Shown here: piece by piece, positions 14,002-63,840 of the stretch
Position numbering within the stretch: position 1 is the first letter of the stretch
Layout: every line of letters begins with the position of its first letter
DNA from: Candidatus Terraquivivens tikiterensis
GTDB taxonomy: Archaea; Thermoproteota; Nitrososphaeria_A; Caldarchaeales; Wolframiiraptoraceae
Reading direction: 5' to 3'
Length of the DNA: 64,000 nucleotides
Assembly: GCA_003056285.1 (NCBI GenBank)
Contig: NDWU01000003.1
Coordinates: forward strand, 5,522 to 69,521
Translations under genes and position numbers: made by a program
Notes under the pieces: model-generated
Told to the model about the DNA's origin: nothing
Seen by the model: only the letters and a program-made list of their open reading frames with translations
The model's database searches: none

Positions 14002-14104
14002 GCGGGGGTTGCCAAGCCTGGTCAACGGCGCAGGGCTTAGGTTCCGTAGAGGATGGGATACCCTGTCCCGTAGGGGTTCGTGGGTTCAAATCCCACCCCC
14101 CGCA
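14002..14104 (+). tRNA. tRNA-Leu(TAG) with an 18-nt intron after position 37
   Basis: Acceptor GCGGGGG/CCCCCGC, D arm GCC-AAGCCTGGTCAAC-GGC, anticodon stem CAGGG/CCCTG with loop CTTAGG[TTCCGTAGAGGATGGGAT]A, long variable arm TCCCGTAGGGGTTC, T arm GTGGG-TTCAAAT-CCCAC, discriminator A. Intron about 14042-14059. Confidence 0.9.
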
Positions 14105-23885: not shown

Positions 23886-24482
23886 ATGAGAGCTGGTTCC
23901 GACGCCGCCCAAAGGCTCGTATCCGAGCTGGAAAAGCTAGGGGCGGTTGGTAGGCTTTTCGGGTCGCGCGGAGAAGTCGTCAAGTACCTCGCGAACCTTG
24001 TGATGGAAAGGAGGGCCAAACTTGTGCTCATCTCTGGCCTAGACCAGGAGTTCTCCTCTGAGCTCAGGAGGGGCATAGCCTCTGCGGGCGCATCCTGCTT
24101 TGAGCTCGACGACGTTGACCCGAAGGATCTCCGTAGGCTTCTCGAAAAAGCCGAGATAGGGGTAACGGGTGCTGACTTAGCCGTTGCAGAGACTGGCTCG
24201 CTCGTCCTAACAACCCGGAACGATGCAGAGAGGCTTCTTTCTTGCCTACCACCCGTACACGTTGCAATAATCGCTAAAGAAAACATAGTGGATAGCTTCT
24301 TGGAGCTTGCCGAATGGTTTAAGAAGATGCAAAGCCAGGGCACACGAACGGTATCAGTGATTACCGGCCCGAGTAGGACGGCGGACATAGAGCGTGAGAT
24401 CGTGTTAGGCGTCCATGGGCCTCACGAGCTACACGTAATAATCCTGGATGGGATGCCGGATGGGGAGAAATCTGGTAGCTGA
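23886..24482 (+). CDS. lutC: LutC/YkgG-family (LUD domain) protein
   Basis: LUD/DUF162 pattern GVTGADLAVAETGSLVL...HVAII. Directly precedes a LutB-like gene. Confidence 0.75.
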   Translation: MRAGSDAAQRLVSELEKLGAVGRLFGSRGEVVKYLANLVMERRAKLVLISGLDQEFSSELRRGIASAGASCFELDDVDPKDLRRLLEKAEIGVTGADLAVAETGSLVLTTRNDAERLLSCLPPVHVAIIAKENIVDSFLELAEWFKKMQSQGTRTVSVITGPSRTADIEREIVLGVHGPHELHVIILDGMPDGEKSGS

Positions 24483-26583
24483 AGTCTCCGAGGCGTTGAG
24501 AAACAGGAACCAGATCGAGAACCTAAGAAGATCCATGCTGCACATGAGAGATAAAAAAGACGCTGCTATGATCGATTACACTGAGAAAAAATTGGCTGAG
24601 CTAAGAGAGATCAGGTACTCTTCGATAAGCTCGATCGAGGAGAACGTCAGGGAACTTAAGGAAAAGCTTGAAGAAAATGGTTGCAATTTTTACTTTGCCA
24701 AAACCGCCAAGGATGCATGCGAGTACGTGGTTAGCCTGGCAAAGGCAAAGGGGGTTAAGAGGATCGTTAAAGCAAAATCCATGACAGCGGAGGAGATAGA
24801 GTTAAACAAATGGCTTACGGCCCATGGGTTCGAGGTAGTCGAGACGGACCTTGGCGAATGGTTGGTCCAGTTAGCCGGCCAGAGGCCTTCCCACTTGATA
24901 ACCCCGGCTATACACCTCTCCAGGCATGACATATCTAAGCTCATAGAGGAGAAGCTAATGGTTAAGCTACCTGCCGACCCTAAGGAGATCACGAGGTTTG
25001 CGCGGTCGTTCCTCAGAGACAAGTTTCTAAGGGCGGACATGGGTATAACTGGCGCAAACCTTCTGGTCGCGGAGACCGGTAGCTTGGTCATCGTAACGAA
25101 CGAAGGGAACGGTAGGTTGGTCACGGCGCTCCCAAGAATCCATGTGGCGATCGTCGGGGTCGAGAAGCTTGTCAAAAGCTGGAAGGATGCTGTGAGGGTA
25201 TTGGATGTTCTGCCGAAGAGCGCTACAGGCCAGAAGATGGCCACCTACGTCACAGTACTGAACGCAGGCTCTGAGACACCATCGCCAGATGGCGGTTTTA
25301 TAAAGCGTGAGCTCCACCTAGTTTTGTTAGATAACGGAAGGCTCGATGCCGCCCGAGACAGCATCATCTCGGATGCGCTGAACTGTATAAGGTGCTCGGC
25401 CTGCTTTAACGTCTGCCCAACCTATAGGGTTCTTGGCGGGCACGTCTTCGGCTACATATACAGCGGCCCAATAGGCATCCCTTGGACGTACATATCGCAT
25501 GGTCTTGAGAACGCGGCGGATTACGCACCCCTTTGTATATCGTGCGGCCTATGCCGCGAAACGTGCCCAATCGGCATAGACATACCGATGATGATCTCTG
25601 AGATAAAGCGAAGGTATGGCGAGCGTAAAGGTTATCCATGGGTAGACAGGAGGCTTGCAGGGTACGAGGGTCTCCTGAGGCTTGCATGCAGGACGTCGCC
25701 CTTGTCAAACTTCCTAAGCAGCACCAGCGTATCCAGATGGGTGTTAGAAAAGCTCATCGGTATAGACAGGAGGGTAAAACTCCCTAGGTTCTCTAGGAGG
25801 ACGTTGCGGGACCTGGCGGAGGGGTTGATCGTTTCGCACGGGGGGAGTGAGGGGAAGGTCGTGTACTTTGCGGACAGCATGGCCTACTACGTAGATACGG
25901 ACGTCGGATTGGCGACCATCGACGTGCTTCAGAGGAACGGCTTCGATGTCGTGATGCCGCCGCAGAAAGGGAGCGGAATGCCCTCGTTCCTTTATGGCCT
26001 GCTAGAGCACACGAAGAAGGTTGCGGAGTACAACGTAAGGCATGCTTACGAGTACGTCTCTAAGGGTTACGACTTAGTTTCTGCAGAGCCGACAGCTGCT
26101 TACTGCTTCAGGTTCATCTATCCTAGGCTGCTAGAGAGCAAAGAGGCTTATGACGTAGCCGAGAGGAGCTATGAGTTGTTCGGATACCTCTCGATGATGC
26201 TGGATAGGGGTGCACTCGACTTAAGATTTAGAAGATACAAGGATGTCAAGGCCGTCTACCACATTCCGTGCCACTCTAGACGTCTAAGCAAGGACAAACC
26301 CGTCCTGAAGTTTTTGGAAATGCTCGGTATAGAGACGGAGTTTATCGACTACGGTTGCTGCGGCATGGGCGGCACGTGGGGCATGAAAAGAGGGTACGAG
26401 GGTTACGAGGTAAGCAGGGTGATTGCCGAGCCGCTTACAAGCGCGATTTCCGAGTCAGATGCGGATTTTGTCGTTACAGAGTGTAGCCTATGTAAGATCC
26501 AGATAGAAAGATTCGCTGACAAAAAGGTCTTCCATCCGGTGTTGCTCCTAGACAAGGCCTACAAGGGTCTTCCCCTACCGTAG
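24448..26583 (+). CDS. LutB-like iron-sulfur protein (LUD domain + 2x[4Fe-4S]) fused to a LutA/HdrB/GlcF-like CCG-domain module
   Basis: GITGANLLVAETGSLVIVTNEGN (LUD), CIRCSACFNVCPTY and CISCGLCRETCPIGI, then CCG-type motifs HIPCHSRR and DYGCCGMGGTWGMK. The exact start is uncertain (35-nt overlap with lutC). Confidence 0.8.
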   Translation: MGCRMGRNLVAEVSEALRNRNQIENLRRSMLHMRDKKDAAMIDYTEKKLAELREIRYSSISSIEENVRELKEKLEENGCNFYFAKTAKDACEYVVSLAKAKGVKRIVKAKSMTAEEIELNKWLTAHGFEVVETDLGEWLVQLAGQRPSHLITPAIHLSRHDISKLIEEKLMVKLPADPKEITRFARSFLRDKFLRADMGITGANLLVAETGSLVIVTNEGNGRLVTALPRIHVAIVGVEKLVKSWKDAVRVLDVLPKSATGQKMATYVTVLNAGSETPSPDGGFIKRELHLVLLDNGRLDAARDSIISDALNCIRCSACFNVCPTYRVLGGHVFGYIYSGPIGIPWTYISHGLENAADYAPLCISCGLCRETCPIGIDIPMMISEIKRRYGERKGYPWVDRRLAGYEGLLRLACRTSPLSNFLSSTSVSRWVLEKLIGIDRRVKLPRFSRRTLRDLAEGLIVSHGGSEGKVVYFADSMAYYVDTDVGLATIDVLQRNGFDVVMPPQKGSGMPSFLYGLLEHTKKVAEYNVRHAYEYVSKGYDLVSAEPTAAYCFRFIYPRLLESKEAYDVAERSYELFGYLSMMLDRGALDLRFRRYKDVKAVYHIPCHSRRLSKDKPVLKFLEMLGIETEFIDYGCCGMGGTWGMKRGYEGYEVSRVIAEPLTSAISESDADFVVTECSLCKIQIERFADKKVFHPVLLLDKAYKGLPLP

Positions 26584-31933: not shown

Positions 31934-33184
31934 TTAAGGCCAGCTACCTAAAGCCTCTACCGCTTCGGCAACCCTTTTTACCGCAACGATCATGGCTGCC
32001 TGCCTTGCGCTCACGCCATACTCTTCGGCTGACCTCATAACGTCCTCGAACGACCTCACCATCTTCCCCTCTAAGTTCGTCCTAACATCCTCGATGGACC
32101 ATTTGGTGCGCGTAAGGTTTTGGACCCACTCGAAGTAGCTGACGGTTACGCCACCGGCGTTAGCCAGTATGTCCGGTACGACGAGCGTCCCCTTCTCGAA
32201 CAAAACCCTGTCAGCCTCAGGCGTCGTCGGTCCGTTGGCCGCCTCTACCACGGCCAACGCCTTAATCCTGTCTGCGTTCCTTTCTGTTATCTGGTTCTCT
32301 AGGGCCGCTGGTATTAGGAAATCACACTCGAGCTCCAGAAGCTCATCGTTCGTTATGTTCTCAGCTTTTTCGTAGTTTATGACGGAGCCCGTCCTCCTCT
32401 TGTGCTCCAGCACCTTTTCGACCTCGAGCCCTTCCTTAGAGTATATGCCACCCTTTGAGTCGCTTACTGCTATAATCCTGCACCCCATCTGCTGAAGGAA
32501 CCATGCCGATGCGTATCCTGCGTTCCCGAACCCCTGCACCACAATCCTGGCGTCCTTTAGCGGCCTCTTCAAGCGTTTGCTGGCCTCCCTCGTTACTATG
32601 GCGACACCCATTCCCGTAGCCTCGTTTCTACCCTCGCTTCCGCCTAAGCTAATGGGCTTACCCGTCACGACGGCGGGCGTCGGCTCATTCTTAACTTTGC
32701 TGTACGTGTCCATCACCCAGGCCATGGTCTGGGCGTCCGTGTAGACATCGGGGGCGGGTATGTCCAGATAGGGGCCTATGATGCTAGATATCGCCATCGT
32801 ATACTTCCTCGTAAGCCTTTCGAGCTCGGCCTGGCTCATGCCCTTTGGGTCGCATGCTATCCCTCCCTTTGCGCCACCGAACGGTATGTCCATCACGGCA
32901 CACTTCCACGTCATCAGCATGGCCAGCGCCGTGACCTCCTCGAGGGTTATGTTCGGATGATACCTTATACCTCCCTTGTACGGCCCCCTTGCAGAGTTGT
33001 GCTGGACCCTGTATCCTGTGAAGACCTTAAGCTCACCGTTATCCATCCTACAGGGCAAGGAGACTATGACGGAGCGCTCGGGCCTCCTCAGGACTTCGGA
33101 TAAATCTTGGCTTATGCCTAGCGTCTGCGCCGCACTCTCAAACTGCCTCATCACGTACGAGAGGAAGAGCGTGTTTGACGTCAT
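31934..33184 (-). CDS. gdhA: glutamate dehydrogenase
   Basis: RGPYKGGIRYHP, TWKCAVMDIPFGGAKGGI, GFGNAGY Rossmann motif; 416 aa. Confidence 0.9.
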   Translation of the reverse strand: MTSNTLFLSYVMRQFESAAQTLGISQDLSEVLRRPERSVIVSLPCRMDNGELKVFTGYRVQHNSARGPYKGGIRYHPNITLEEVTALAMLMTWKCAVMDIPFGGAKGGIACDPKGMSQAELERLTRKYTMAISSIIGPYLDIPAPDVYTDAQTMAWVMDTYSKVKNEPTPAVVTGKPISLGGSEGRNEATGMGVAIVTREASKRLKRPLKDARIVVQGFGNAGYASAWFLQQMGCRIIAVSDSKGGIYSKEGLEVEKVLEHKRRTGSVINYEKAENITNDELLELECDFLIPAALENQITERNADRIKALAVVEAANGPTTPEADRVLFEKGTLVVPDILANAGGVTVSYFEWVQNLTRTKWSIEDVRTNLEGKMVRSFEDVMRSAEEYGVSARQAAMIVAVKRVAEAVEALGSWP

Positions 33185-33326: not shown

Positions 33327-34577
33327 TCACAGACCCTCCATCCTCCACGCATACTCTTCTAGCTCTTCGCGGGCGTAAGCCTCCCTGGCCACGTCTATGG
33401 CACCATCCCTTAGGAGCATGGCCTTTTTTACCCTTCTCTTGGCTACCTCTTCGGCAACGCTCCTGGGCGAGCGGTTTGAATGGGCAGACTCGATCAGGAC
33501 CCTCTTCACGTTCGTCGTTATCTTGTACTTAATCAGCTCAAACGCCTGCACCTCGGTCCCGCCTATGTACTCGACGTAAGAACCTATTAGGCCGCCAGCG
33601 TTGACGAGGAAGTCGGGCATTACCCATATGCCGTTTTGCTGCAGTATACTTTCCGCTTCTTTCGTCGTCGGTATGTTCGCAGCCTCGACAACCATCTTCA
33701 CTTTCGATGAGATAAGGTTGTGGACTGTCTGCTCGTTTATCGTGTACGACGTTGCCGCTGGTATGAATATGTCCACTTCTTTTTCAAATATTTTCTCCCT
33801 AGGTTCCTTGTTAGGAATCTTTAAATCTTTAAGCATGGGTGCCTTCATTTTTGTCCTTAAGAGCCTTAACTCGTCCATTATCTTTGGCACGTCCAAACCA
33901 TTTGGATCGTACACGCAGGCCGAGGCGTCGCTTATAGCAACTACTTTGTACCCCATCTCGTCTAGAAACTTGGCTGTGAACGAACCCACGTTGCCGAATC
34001 CCTGTATAGCGATCTTGGCATCCTTTGCGTCTATGTTCAACAGGTTTAGCTTGTTCAGGATCTTAATGGATAGGTCGGTTGCGATGGCGACGCCGTAGCC
34101 CGTCGTACCCAGTTCGTGCGGTATGCCCCCTAGCTCCGTAGGCTTACCGGTGCAGGCCCTCATGTCGCCTATCTCGTGCGCGAAAACTGCCATATCCATC
34201 TCCGTCGTTCCCATGTCCGTGGCTCCTATGTACTGTAGCGGCACGTACGGTTTGATGGCCTTTGCGAACGCCCTGATCCATGCTACCCTGTCGACCTCTA
34301 GGGGGTCTCCCTTAATTCCCCCTTTTGCTCCGCCGAACGGTAGACCGGCCAGGGCGCACTTCCAAGTCATCGTCCTTGCGAGCAAAAAAATCTCCTGGGG
34401 CGTTACCGTCGGCTGAAACCTTATCCCGCCTTTTCCTGGACCCATGGCCGTGTTGTCGATAACCAAGACACCCTGCATCTTCGTATGCGGGTCATAGACC
34501 TGTATGACCTTTTCCGGTCCCCACTCATCAGCCAGGCTCCATACATCAACGTAGCTTCTAAAATTTAAGCCAGGCAT
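33327..34577 (-). CDS. Glu/Leu/Phe/Val dehydrogenase-family protein (divergent second GDH paralog)
   Basis: GPGKGGIRFQP, TWKCALAGLPFGGAKGGI, GFGNVGS; 416 aa. Clearly diverged from the neighbouring gdh. Confidence 0.85.
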   Translation of the reverse strand: MPGLNFRSYVDVWSLADEWGPEKVIQVYDPHTKMQGVLVIDNTAMGPGKGGIRFQPTVTPQEIFLLARTMTWKCALAGLPFGGAKGGIKGDPLEVDRVAWIRAFAKAIKPYVPLQYIGATDMGTTEMDMAVFAHEIGDMRACTGKPTELGGIPHELGTTGYGVAIATDLSIKILNKLNLLNIDAKDAKIAIQGFGNVGSFTAKFLDEMGYKVVAISDASACVYDPNGLDVPKIMDELRLLRTKMKAPMLKDLKIPNKEPREKIFEKEVDIFIPAATSYTINEQTVHNLISSKVKMVVEAANIPTTKEAESILQQNGIWVMPDFLVNAGGLIGSYVEYIGGTEVQAFELIKYKITTNVKRVLIESAHSNRSPRSVAEEVAKRRVKKAMLLRDGAIDVAREAYAREELEEYAWRMEGL

Positions 34578-38259: not shown

Positions 38260-41028
38260 TTACTCTGAGGTAGGTGTTGGGTAGTAGTACTCGCCAGCAG
38301 CTTTCTGCTGCCTATCCAACCTAGAGTCGGGTTTGTTTGCCCTTGGCCTGAATGTTTGATGGTCCCTCCTGAACGTAACACCCATTTCCTTTAGGAAGGT
38401 GTTAAAACCAGACCTAAGGTCCATTGGCTTGCTGCCATGTCCTCTGACGCTCGGCTCACCCGAGAAGACCATTAACCTATTCGATGCAAAGTCCAAAACC
38501 ATCAGGTCATGCTCCACGAGGAATGTATAGGCCTGCCTCTCGCGCGTTATCCTCTTTAACAGCTTCGCAACCATGTACCTTTCCTCAACATCCAAGTAGG
38601 CACTGGGCTCATCTATCAAGTAGATCTCGGCATCCTTTGACAGAGCCTCGGCTATCGCAACCTTCTGAAGCTCGCCGCCGCTCAAATCCTTAACGTTCCT
38701 CTCGAGCAGCTTGTGCAGACCTAAAGGCCTAATAAGCTCTGACTGGTAAAGGTCGGTCTCGAATTTGCTTCCGGCCGCTTGTCTCAGAACAGCCTCGACC
38801 TTCTCGTCCCTTATCTCCGGGTACTGGGGCTTGTAGCTTATCACCCTGTAGGGCAATTGGAACTCTGCGTCAGCCCTCTCAACGCCCGCCAATATCTTTA
38901 TGAACGTCGTCTTGCCTATGCCGTTCGGACCCACTATGCCTATCACCTCGCCCGGATATATGCACCCACTATCGACCTCAAGCCTGAAGGCATCGTATGT
39001 TTTTGTAATGCTGGGCCAGTAAAGCGCCGAGTGGCTTTCCTCGTATGCCTCTGTAGGAGGCTTCAGCTGGAACGAAATCCTCTCGTTTCTAAACCTTACG
39101 TTCTCATCGGGTATGTAGCCCTCTATGAGTATGTTTATGCCTTCTCTGACACCGTAGGGTCCTGCGACTATGCCGTACACTCCAGGCTCGCCATAAAACA
39201 CGAAGACCTTATCTGACATGTAATCAAGGACTGCGAGGTCGTGGTCGGATACAAGGACCATGTTTCCACTTAACGCCGCCTCCCTGATCGCCGACGCAAC
39301 CTTAAACCTTTGTTTAATGTCGAGAAAGCTTGTCGGCTCATCCAAGATGAAAGCGTTGGCATCCTTCGCAAGGCACGCAGCTATCGCGAAGCGCTGGAGC
39401 TCGCCACCGCTTAGAACGGAAACGTCTCTGTCCAAGAGATTACGGAGCTCAAGCACGTCTATTAATTTGTTGACACGATCCCCAGAACCAACCTTGGAGA
39501 GGATCGTGCCGACTTTGCCTTTTACCACTTTTGGTATCATATCGATGTATTGTGGCTTGTACGAGACTTTCACGCTACCGTTTGCAAGCTTTGTCATATA
39601 GTCCTGTATGAGCGAGCCCCTGAATACCCTCGCAACGTCGTACAAAGACCTCTCCCCATCAAGCCTACCCAAGTTCGGGACGATATGGCCTGACAGTATC
39701 TGGATGGCAGTGGTCTTGCCGATTCCGTTCTTTCCTACGATTCCGATAACTTTACCCTCCTCCAGGTACGGAAGTCTGTAGAGCCTGAAAGAGTTTATGC
39801 CGTATTGGTGCGTCAGGTCCTTGCCCAGCTCCTCGCTGAGGTTAACTATCGTGATTGCTTGAAATGGACACTTTTTGACACAGTTATGTACGACAAGCCC
39901 TGCTGCGTTATAGCTCTCATCTTCCTCGACTTCCAAGTTCATCACTGGGTAGTCCTTCACGTACTCGATGCTTACCGAGTCTATGGGGTGTAGCTGGTAA
40001 CCTTGCCACGACGTAATTTTTTTGTCTTCTACGAGCGAGGCAACGTAAGCGTTTTTGCCACCTTCTAGCGTTGTCTTGCTTAGGCATAGGGGCTGACCAA
40101 CCTTGGCTGCCATCAGTTTTAGGACGTATGCATCGTTCCTGGAGATGCGCAATGTTACGCCATTCCTTCCGGCGCATGCTAACCCTAATACGATCCCTTT
40201 CAAGAAGTCCAATGGTGCTGAGAGAAAGCTAAGAGGTATGCGCTTTGAGCCCTCTGATTCCCCGAACGGGTTAGCTGAGGATTCTGGGTTAACGGCTGAT
40301 AGCCCGGATCCACCGTTCTTGGTTTTTATGCCGAGGTGTCTTTCCAGCATCTCCTTAACCTTCTCCGCTGGGCTTTCTCTGGTGGATCCAAATACGACCT
40401 TCACACAGTCCGTACAGCCATTTGCGAGGGAGTAACCGAACGATAAACCGAGCTCAAAAGTTAGCTGAGGCCGCAACGACCGTGCAAGCCCATCGGGCCC
40501 AGTATTCCCATTTAGCATGAACGCTCCTAAGCCGCCGTCGGCCTGGATTACTGGGATGCAAAGATAATCCTCCTCCGTCAACTCCGGTGGGGTTTTCCAC
40601 GCGAACGTGAAGCCACGCCCGTCCCGGCGTTTAGATGCTGTAAGCAGAGGGTGCTCCTCCGTCAGCGCTATGGTGTCTGGTACGCCGTATACGCGTATCC
40701 TGTAAAGGGGACCGGTGTAGGCCCTAACGCTTTTCGAAAGTACGGAGCTAAACCTCCCTTTATGCGTGAGAACTCTCTCGCCTACGCTAATTTCCCTAAT
40801 GGGCTTCAAGCCGATCTCTGTTATGACCGGTGTATCTGGGTCGAGGCATATGCCGCACCCGATGCATAGCACCTCGTTGATCACCGGAAAGCCCTTCTCA
40901 CCGGGCTTTATGGCCTCTATCCTGTTCCTCACGGGCGGGCAGAATGCTATGCAGGGCTGGCCGCACTTTGTAGGCTGGCAGAAGTCGTAATCTATAACCG
41001 CTACCCTGTGCAACCTGCTCACCTGCAA
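38260..41028 (-). CDS. ABCE1 / RNase L inhibitor (ribosome-recycling ABC ATPase), intein-containing precursor
   Basis: N-terminal Fe-S domain (CQPTKCGQPCIAFCP, CIGCGIC...VKKCPF), two ABC cassettes (GKNGIGKTT, LSGGELQR, GPNGIGKTT, LSGGELQK). 922 aa, or 600 aa without the insert. Confidence 0.9.
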   Translation of the reverse strand: MQVSRLHRVAVIDYDFCQPTKCGQPCIAFCPPVRNRIEAIKPGEKGFPVINEVLCIGCGICLDPDTPVITEIGLKPIREISVGERVLTHKGRFSSVLSKSVRAYTGPLYRIRVYGVPDTIALTEEHPLLTASKRRDGRGFTFAWKTPPELTEEDYLCIPVIQADGGLGAFMLNGNTGPDGLARSLRPQLTFELGLSFGYSLANGCTDCVKVVFGSTRESPAEKVKEMLERHLGIKTKNGGSGLSAVNPESSANPFGESEGSKRIPLSFLSAPLDFLKGIVLGLACAGRNGVTLRISRNDAYVLKLMAAKVGQPLCLSKTTLEGGKNAYVASLVEDKKITSWQGYQLHPIDSVSIEYVKDYPVMNLEVEEDESYNAAGLVVHNCVKKCPFQAITIVNLSEELGKDLTHQYGINSFRLYRLPYLEEGKVIGIVGKNGIGKTTAIQILSGHIVPNLGRLDGERSLYDVARVFRGSLIQDYMTKLANGSVKVSYKPQYIDMIPKVVKGKVGTILSKVGSGDRVNKLIDVLELRNLLDRDVSVLSGGELQRFAIAACLAKDANAFILDEPTSFLDIKQRFKVASAIREAALSGNMVLVSDHDLAVLDYMSDKVFVFYGEPGVYGIVAGPYGVREGINILIEGYIPDENVRFRNERISFQLKPPTEAYEESHSALYWPSITKTYDAFRLEVDSGCIYPGEVIGIVGPNGIGKTTFIKILAGVERADAEFQLPYRVISYKPQYPEIRDEKVEAVLRQAAGSKFETDLYQSELIRPLGLHKLLERNVKDLSGGELQKVAIAEALSKDAEIYLIDEPSAYLDVEERYMVAKLLKRITRERQAYTFLVEHDLMVLDFASNRLMVFSGEPSVRGHGSKPMDLRSGFNTFLKEMGVTFRRDHQTFRPRANKPDSRLDRQQKAAGEYYYPTPTSE
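39883..40848 (-). mobile_element. intein (322 aa) with degenerate LAGLIDADG homing-endonuclease domain, inserted in the ABCE1 Fe-S motif
   Basis: Begins CLDPDTPVIT (block A), TEEHPLL (block B TxxH), LAGLIDADG-like LGLSFGYSLANG and FLKGIVLGLACAGRNG, and ends MNLEVEEDESYNAAGLVVHN followed by +1 Cys. The exteins join to CIGCGICVKKCPF. Confidence 0.85.
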
Positions 41029-41060
41029 CTAAGCGTTCAAGCACTGGTTATGGTTTTTAT

Positions 41061-41259
41061 CAAACTTAGCGAAAAACTACGTCCTTTAGTTGTGGGGTGG
41101 ATCTCTAGGGAATTAAATACGCGCCACGTAATAAAAGTTTCGAGCGTGCTGCTCGGATGCCCAAAGGCCAGAATAAGGCTCCGGACAGGATGGGCGAGGC
41201 TCTGGCAGGTCGATACGGGAAAGCGGCCCACGCCTTAGCGGGATGCAGGGGATTGTGAA
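41061..41259 (+). mobile_element. IS200/IS605-derived MITE, copy D
   Basis: TTAT|CAAACTTAGCGAAAAAC left end, internal CCAAAGGCCAGAATAAGGCTCCGG block shared with copy A, and a degenerate right end CCCACGCCTTAGCGGG...TTGTGAA. Confidence 0.45.
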
Positions 41260-63729: not shown

Positions 63730-63840
63730 GGGCCCGTAGCTCAGCCAGGTAGGGGATTCCGCCTAGAGCGGTGGGCTCTTAGGTTTGCTTAAAACGGAGT
63801 AACCCATAGGCCGTGGGTTCGAATCCCACCGGGCCCGCCA
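63730..63840 (+). tRNA. tRNA-Lys(CTT) with two introns (D-loop and canonical 37/38) and encoded CCA
   Basis: Acceptor GGGCCCG/CGGGCCC, D arm GCTC-AGCCAGGTAG[GGGATTCCGCCTAG]AGC, anticodon stem GTGGG/CCCAT with loop CTCTTA[GGTTTGCTTAAAACGGAGTA]A, T arm GTGGG-TTCGAAT-CCCAC, then G and CCA. Introns at about 63753-63766 and 63782-63801. Confidence 0.85.

Follow-up and report, generated by a model that had tools for sequence, protein, structure and literature searches.

The window analysed here is a 64-kb stretch (64,000 nucleotides) of contig NDWU01000003.1 from the hot-spring archaeon Candidatus Terraquivivens tikiterensis, and within it we read the locus of ABCE1 (RLI), the ribosome-recycling ATPase, whose gene is interrupted by an in-frame insert with the features of an intein. 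The open reading frame (ORF) lies at 38260..41028 on the minus strand, as do all features of the gene given below, and encodes 922 amino acids plus stop, a precursor of ~102 kDa. Its score against the NCBIfam RLI/ABCE1 equivalog PRK13409 was 802.8 bits, above the cut-off of 469, and the match fell into two stretches, of which the larger covered residues 383-917. Pfam placed PF04068 (Fer4_RLI) at residues 8-35, together with two copies of PF00005 (ABC_tran), and the product freed of the insert carries eight cysteines arranged as CX4CX4CX3CP...CX2CX2CX3CP. The equivalog match, the eight-cysteine iron-sulfur (FeS) domain and the two nucleotide-binding domains identify the host protein as ABCE1/RLI. 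Two in-frame TTG codons at 41013 and 41028, 15 nt apart, are candidate starts; the gene call of the sequence collection for the same ORF begins at TTG 41013 and gives 917 aa (P0007). An A/T-rich, TATA-like element, TTTGATAAAAACC, recognised from the sequence only at 41050..41063, lies ~25-35 nt upstream of both TTG candidates. It is a possible archaeal promoter of the ABCE1 gene, and its spacing suggests a leaderless or short-leader mRNA.

The insert comprises residues 61-382 (322 aa) and occupies 39883..40848, with the codon of residue 61 (Cys) at 40846-40848 and that of residue 382 (Asn) at 39883-39885. Upstream of it, the N-extein (40849..41028; residues 1-60) holds the first FeS motif, CX4CX4CX3CP (40936-40980), and the sequence CIGCGI (40849-40866) with the first two cysteines of the second motif, of which Cys58 (40855-40857) takes position Cys-3 relative to the intein. 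Downstream, the C-extein (38260..39882; residues 383-922 plus stop) opens with CVKKCPF (39862-39882) and continues into the two ABC nucleotide-binding domains. Its first residue, Cys+1 (codon 39880-39882), is the third cysteine of CxxCxxCxxxCP. Deletion of residues 61-382 yields a 600-aa protein reading CIGCGI/CVKKCPF (the slash marks the junction), which aligned end-to-end with Pyrococcus abyssi ABCE1 (3bk7, E 5e-192), CIGCGI/CVKKCPF pairing with CTGCGICVHKCPF without a gap at the junction. No gap was found there against Sulfolobus ABCE1 (6tmf, CIGCGICVKKCPY) or the human protein (CIGCGICIKKCPF) either, and yeast Rli1 aligned to the 600-aa product over the junction region. The cluster-ligand triad that the insert splits is identical from Sulfolobus to human, and Cys+1 corresponds by numbering, from the alignment offsets, to C61 of yeast and human. 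For the individual ligand cysteines of ABCE1 we presume the assignments of Barthelme 2007 and Karcher 2008. An earlier reading of the DNA, made from its letters and ORFs (the sequence-only reading), had taken the 922-aa ORF for ABCE1, placed the insert at 39883-40848, foreseen that its removal would restore CIGCGI/CVKKCPF and a 600-aa protein, and recognised the +1 nucleophile as a cluster-ligand cysteine. The equivalog match bears out the identity of the host, the codon positions show the coordinates to be exact, and the contiguous alignments with the intein-less orthologues (3bk7, 6tmf, Rli1 and human) establish the junctions.

The insert carries the blocks of a class-1 intein. Its N-terminal splicing region (40525..40848; intein residues 1-108; predicted local distance difference test score (pLDDT) above 90) begins with Cys1 of block A (codon 40846-40848) and contains block B, ALTEEHPLL (40642-40668), in which TEEH represents intein residues 63-66 and provides Thr63 and His66. 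The C-terminal splicing region (39883..40023; residues 276-322) contains block F, PVMNLEVEEDESY (39898-39948), and ends in block G with VVHN, that is His321-Asn322 (Asn codon 39883-39885), followed by Cys+1 (C383). In an alignment of 14 family sequences, only 37-67% identical overall, T63, H66, H321 and N322 were invariant, and so were V302, N304, E306, V307, D310 and Y313, which gives block F the core N-x-E-V-x-x-D-x-x-Y. Cys1 was invariant in 13/13 members whose sequence includes the N-terminus, and Cys+1 is present after every allele. The insert thus combines Cys1, the TxxH of block B, His-Asn and Cys+1, the residues by which class-1 inteins are recognised. Small ORFs of 86-110 aa on both strands of the intein region were rejected as spurious; the ABCE1 frame is kept in all same-site alleles examined.

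Profile and structure comparisons pointed in the same direction, with matches well outside what chance would give. A profile of the 14-sequence family, searched against the Protein Data Bank (PDB), matched the PhoVMA intein (7qst, E 8e-16) and PI-PkoII (E 5e-15), as well as TliVMA and, more weakly, gp41-1, the MJ0781 KlbA intein and PI-SceI, and it aligned the degenerate middle domain of the insert to the endonuclease domains of PhoVMA and PI-PkoII. AlphaFold run from the single sequence gave a pLDDT of 33; the usable model came from the 14-sequence alignment (AF2), with a pLDDT of 77 overall and above 90 at residues 1-105 and 280-322. With this model Foldseek retrieved the TliVMA, PhoVMA and PI-SceI inteins as top matches (E 4e-15 to 1e-9, TM score 0.67), followed by mini-inteins and the Hedgehog Hint domain 1at0. 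As modelled, the insert has the HINT fold, and splicing blocks, profile and predicted structure taken together identify it as a genuine class-1 intein with an embedded LAGLIDADG-type domain.

That embedded domain (40024..40524; intein residues 109-275; pLDDT 39-78) is degenerate. Its motif-1 remnant, FGYSLANG (40408-40452), has Asn in place of Glu, and its motif-2 remnant, LGLACAGRNG (40159-40203), contains no Asp and no acidic residue. Aligned to the motifs (V/I)GYYLAEG and W(R/G)GDG of intact relatives, the window sequence lacks both catalytic acids, and the domain is ~50 aa shorter than in those relatives. The Pfam scan of the window protein gave no match to PF14528, whereas P0001, a Thermoplasmata ABCE1 fragment, does match this family. 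Throughout the window clade the motif-1 acid is replaced by R, K or N (9/9 alleles: YYLARG, YYIAKG, YSLANG, LLSNG, LLLNG). These losses support the view that the LAGLIDADG endonuclease of the window is inactive and that the element no longer homes. In P0009 (774 aa) and, independently, at metagenome locus L084 (601-1140) the endonuclease has been deleted, leaving a 180-aa mini-intein with all splicing blocks intact; in P0015 and P0016 the domain is shortened and the inteins, of 279-282 aa, likewise keep all blocks. The splicing domain therefore appears to be maintained while the endonuclease is dispensable. The sequence-only reading had listed block A (Cys1), block B (TEEHPLL) and block G (VVHN with Cys+1), which are present here and conserved in the family, and had called the endonuclease probably dead, with which the loss of the acids relative to intact alleles agrees. 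It had also named what would speak against an intein, an extra domain without conservation of Cys1, His-Asn and Cys+1; these residues proved to be strictly conserved.

Nor is the allele of the window unique, as the search for further alleles at the same site, which the same reading had advised, revealed. A first word-indexed protein search with the insert returned six matches and missed close alleles, which were recovered by a search with the spliced exteins. At least nine protein clusters, five GTDB species genomes and nine metagenome contigs carry the intein at this site. The intein-bearing products are P0007 (917 aa, that of the window), P0008 (907 aa), P0010-P0013 (911-921 aa), P0015 (877 aa), P0016 (874 aa) and P0009; P0014, a 624-aa partial sequence that starts inside the intein, is also a carrier. 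In the spliced-extein search, all ABCE1 proteins with 74-100% extein identity carry the intein at the same site, whereas those at <=69%, among the matches listed, are 591-602 aa long and have no insert. One of the latter is ABCE1 of Ca. Caldarchaeum subterraneum, with 62% extein identity. The closest named genome is that of Ca. Terraquivivens ruidianensis (L005; Ca. Wolframiiraptoraceae, Nitrososphaerota in the NCBI taxonomy), whose extein is 91% and whose intein 65% identical to those of the window. Synonymous divergence (dS) of the window from L005 was 1.04 for the intein and 1.00 for the extein; the ratio of nonsynonymous to synonymous divergence (dN/dS) was 0.22 for the intein, 0.045 for the extein and 0.13-0.19 for the splicing segments. 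The G+C content of intein (0.526) and extein (0.515) revealed no compositional difference. The division of intein presence between 74% and 69% extein identity points to one old invasion, followed by vertical inheritance and endonuclease decay, and the simplest reading would be a single ancient invasion, loss of endonuclease activity and subsequent inheritance with the host gene. The intein would then have entered an ancestor of a thermophilic Aigarchaeota/Caldarchaeales lineage (the Ca. Terraquivivens group, Wolframiiraptoraceae) and have been passed on vertically with ABCE1 ever since, while its endonuclease domain decayed. Splicing competence would be kept by selection because the host gene is essential, and the intein would persist since only an exact deletion could keep the essential ABCE1 gene functional.

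From these observations we consider it highly probable that residues 61-382 form a class-1 intein that interrupts the FeS motif of ABCE1, splices itself out, carries a dead endonuclease and is vertically inherited. The class-1 splicing mechanism is established and has been reviewed (PMC10663303). Applied to the window protein, it would start with an N-S acyl shift at Cys1, aided by Thr63 and His66, upon which Cys+1 would attack the thioester (trans-thioesterification); Asn322 would cyclise with the help of His321, and an S-N shift would then join the exteins. The 102-kDa precursor would in this way release a 35-kDa intein and leave a 67-kDa ABCE1 in which the CIGCGICVKKCPF motif is intact. Since Cys+1 and the cysteine of the following Cys-Pro are cluster ligands, the mature FeS domain would most likely form only after splicing. 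With a ligand cysteine as splice nucleophile, an obligatory self-processing step would thus precede cofactor insertion. This matters for the host, as all archaea and eukaryotes possess ABCE1 and depend on it, and as its FeS domain drives ribosome splitting; both [4Fe-4S] clusters and most ligand cysteines are needed for function (PMC8153317, PMC3442406).

Several results weigh against this reading and have to be set beside it. Block F reads VMNLEVEEDESY (VMN304LEVEEDESY), with Asn before LEV where many inteins have Asp, and it has no His in the 'HNF' position. The insert alone scored 23.1 bits (E 6.8e-5) against PF14890 and 22.5 bits (E 1.7e-4) against TIGR01445, below the respective cut-offs of 35.8 and 24.5, and a single-sequence PDB search with it retrieved no intein, only a spurious phosphatase match (E 0.47). 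The endonuclease segment showed a dN/dS of 0.26 between window and L005, well below 1, and the endonuclease-like region may retain a residual structural or DNA-binding role. Finally, dS is saturated (>=1), which makes both the dN/dS values and the argument for co-inheritance rough. As to block F, the family keeps the Asn variant without exception, in many host genes and also where the endonuclease is intact, and the Asp position varies among known inteins, so that Asn is not disqualifying. The sub-threshold scores and the constraint on the endonuclease-like region would fit a lineage-specific domain of 322 aa that does not splice and is kept in mature ABCE1. We regard such a domain as very unlikely, given splicing residues strictly conserved at so low an overall identity, the deletion of the middle domain from P0009 and L084 with the splicing blocks retained, an insertion point within a ligand triad otherwise the same from Sulfolobus to human, and a fold and profile that match inteins.

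Just as improbable is a recent horizontal acquisition of an intein that has an active endonuclease and can still move. Thermoplasmata do have alleles at this site in which the LAGLIDADG motifs are intact (P0001, L002, L003, L085-L089); in the window, however, both acids are absent, the motif-1 acid is missing clade-wide, presence of the intein tracks host phylogeny cleanly, its synonymous divergence equals that of the host gene and its composition shows no anomaly. For an assembly chimera or a pseudogene we found no supporting point, and its probability is close to nil: the 2.8-kb frame is uninterrupted, the same architecture recurs in independent metagenome-assembled genomes and in metagenome contigs of up to 576 kb, and a dN/dS of 0.045 shows strong purifying selection on the exteins. 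The vertically inherited, self-splicing intein thus remains our preferred explanation of the locus.

The family to which this intein belongs is found in other lineages and in other hosts. Besides P0001, whose 372-aa insert occupies exactly the same position, the search with the insert retrieved a protein resembling NuoI and several mini-inteins located in other hosts. The Thermoplasmata ABCE1 inteins (L002, L003, L009/P0001, L085-L089) share the insertion point of the window, CI[SA]CGI/C...HN/C[VI][KR]KCPF, and are its best matches outside the window clade (30% identity, 132-156 bits); they differ from it in their length of 372-373 aa, in their intact YYLAEG and WRGDG motifs and in belonging to a different archaeal phylum, and they are possibly still mobile, to judge from those motifs. 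Alleles at one and the same site span the homing cycle, from intact (Thermoplasmata) over decayed (window) and partly deleted to the 180-aa mini-intein. This mini-intein and the thermophilic relatives offer compact Cys1/Cys+1 splicing domains that could have practical use. A neighbor-joining tree built from the splicing domains did not resolve the deep branches, nor did it join the two ABCE1 intein groups; for this reason we make no claim that they are one clade and relied on reciprocal BLAST ranks.

Inteins of the same family occur in NuoI of Nitrososphaerales, at two sites 6 residues apart within one CxxCxxCxxxCP motif: site a, DYGR/C...VHN/CVFCGL, and site b, CVFCGL/C...TSN/CVDACPF (loci outside the window: L004, 1177-4287, as well as L006, L008, L010, L015, L025 and L032). 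NuoI is the complex I subunit with two [4Fe-4S] clusters. In most loci the site-a element is a mini-intein of 172-182 aa and the site-b element keeps its LAGLIDADG motifs; with the exception of L015, the site-b inteins end in Ser-Asn instead of His-Asn. Site b resembles the ABCE1 site in lying between the second and third cysteine of CxxCxxCxxxCP, with a cluster ligand as +1 Cys. NuoI differs from ABCE1 in being part of a respiratory complex, in the canonical block F of its site-b inteins (VMDVTVEDDHTF) and in its capacity to carry two inteins. Across host genes, NuoI-b and Thermoplasmata ABCE1 inteins are reciprocal best matches (198-244 bits), by modest margins, which suggests that an intein may have jumped between the non-orthologous genes ABCE1 and NuoI via the shared ferredoxin motif. 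At the DNA level, the target sites of ABCE1 and NuoI-b are identical at up to 30/42 positions; we rejected this as evidence of transfer, because it is about what the shared peptide motif alone gives. Further hosts of the family are SufB, class II ribonucleotide reductase, DnaE and DNA methyltransferases. The SufB alleles (...YIEG/C...HN/CTAP; L007, L011, L016, L036, L058) come from DPANN archaea (Nanoarchaeia, Micrarchaeota) and from a bacterium of the candidate phyla radiation (Curtissbacteria), so that the family spans both domains and several hosts related to FeS clusters.

In the precursor the cysteines at the junction read C55-I-G-C58-G-I-C1, and Cys1 of the intein thus completes a CxxCxxC triad. 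The pair C58-G-I-C61 has the Cys-3 plus Cys1 arrangement by which redox-trap inteins are defined (PMC3922620). A disulfide between Cys-3 and Cys1 underlies an engineered redox trap and the native control of the P. abyssi MoaA intein (PMC3922620, PMC10663303), a Cys1/Cys+1 disulfide blocks splicing in the Pab PolII intein (PMC3922620), and zinc inhibits several inteins by binding to active-site residues (PMC10663303). Taken with the Cys-3/Cys1 pair, these precedents make redox or metal sensitivity in vitro a reasonable prediction, whereas a regulatory role in the cell is speculative, since it is the host motif that requires these cysteines. The sequence-only reading had inferred that cluster assembly, and hence ribosome recycling, should depend on prior splicing and that the junction could be sensitive to redox or metals; the MoaA intein supplies a concrete precedent for this inference. 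Cys58 itself matches by numbering the only dispensable ligand of Rli1 in yeast (C58A; PMC3442406).

Such a role would extend the splicing-intein reading rather than exclude it: splicing would be gated by redox state, metal or FeS availability. Under oxidising conditions a Cys58/Cys1 disulfide could form as in the MoaA trap, or else Cys55, Cys58 and Cys1, with Cys+1 or Cys30, could coordinate Zn, Fe or a cluster, which would sequester the nucleophile; in either case active ABCE1, and with it ribosome recycling, would be available only when the cell is reducing or FeS-replete. We consider this rather unlikely. The spacing of Cys-3 and Cys1 is exactly that of the MoaA trap (PMC3922620, PMC10663303), disulfide and zinc inhibition are known from other inteins, Cys1 completes the triad in the precursor, and the supply of clusters to ABCE1 is oxidant-sensitive (PMC3442406). 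The closest named relative belongs to Wolframiiraptoraceae, a family described as consisting of anaerobic thermophiles. Yet it is the host motif that sets the positions of the cysteines, which would be there even if they played no part in regulation; persistence is fully explained by how hard it is to delete an intein exactly from an essential gene; and the cytoplasm of an anaerobe may rarely turn oxidising enough. Equally doubtful, in our estimate, is the wider proposal that ABCE1 maturation is a redox/FeS checkpoint and that one intein lineage targets the ferredoxin motif CxxCxxC/CxxxCP in unrelated proteins (ABCE1, NuoI a/b). If it held, FeS ligand triads would be a recurrent, previously unrecognised class of intein niche. 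The Cys-3/Cys1 pair in any case offers a natural system in which to ask whether splicing gates the maturation of a translation factor by redox or metal status.

The surroundings of the gene are those of a chromosome. Its neighbours are housekeeping genes, encoding an M17 aminopeptidase, a thermosome subunit, two glutamate dehydrogenases, aspartyl-tRNA synthetase, DnaK and the beta subunit of phenylalanyl-tRNA synthetase, and the region looks chromosomal and not part of a mobile element. The two dehydrogenases are adjacent paralogues of the glutamate/leucine type (31934-33184 and 33327-34577, both on the minus strand), both of 416 aa but with widely differing Pfam scores (280 and 181 bits). On the plus strand, at 24448-26583, a 711-aa fusion combines a LUD domain, a 4Fe-4S dicluster domain and a CCG cysteine-rich domain; it resembles LutB/GlcF-type iron-sulfur oxidoreductases, and its ferredoxin motif is free of inteins. 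Two tRNA genes were found with Rfam, both on the plus strand, at 14002-14104 (103 nt, 42 bits) and 63730-63837 (108 nt, 52 bits). ARAGORN reported no tRNAs in the window and missed both. Their spans of 103-108 nt against a 71-position Rfam model imply introns, typical of archaea (Thermoproteati).

The intein is thus of a standard kind, in a host and at a site that are apparently undescribed. Full-text literature searches for inteins with ABCE1, Rli1, 'RNase L inhibitor' or NuoI, which did not cover older intein catalogues, yielded no description, and the main text of the intein survey of Novikova et al. 2016 mentions none of these four names. The sequence-only reading had not counted ABCE1 among the classical intein hosts, which agrees with the lack of any ABCE1 intein paper among the search results. 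The sequences are public, but their annotation goes no further than RLI or 'LAGLIDADG family homing endonuclease, partial'. What adds interest is the junction at a ligand cysteine, the series of alleles with progressive endonuclease decay at one site and the parallel in NuoI.

Among characterised systems, the archaeal VMA inteins of V/A-ATPase subunit A (PhoVMA 7qst, TliVMA 7qsu/7qss) and PI-SceI share with the window intein a HINT domain with an inserted LAGLIDADG domain, the class-1 set of Cys1, His-Asn and Cys+1, and an essential ATPase as host, interrupted within a highly conserved motif. They differ in host and site and are ~16% identical to it, and the window intein has lost both acids and ~50 residues. 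The mycobacterial SufB intein resembles that of ABCE1 in having a host in FeS metabolism; SufB, however, is a component of the cluster-assembly scaffold, and its intein does not split a cluster-ligand triad. Stress-sensitive splicing of the mycobacterial SufB intein has reportedly been demonstrated experimentally by Topilina and colleagues in 2015. A parallel at the level of the splice junction itself is found in MoaA, a radical S-adenosylmethionine FeS enzyme. As in the window, the P. abyssi MoaA intein resides in an archaeal thermophile, in an oxygen-sensitive host enzyme, and with the same Cys-3/Cys1 spacing (here C58 and C61). Disulfide control of MoaA splicing was shown experimentally (Callahan et al. 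2011, as reviewed in PMC3922620 and PMC10663303), whereas for ABCE1 it is a prediction. Host and site also differ, and it is in ABCE1 that Cys-6, Cys-3 and Cys+1 are all ligands of one and the same ferredoxin-type motif.

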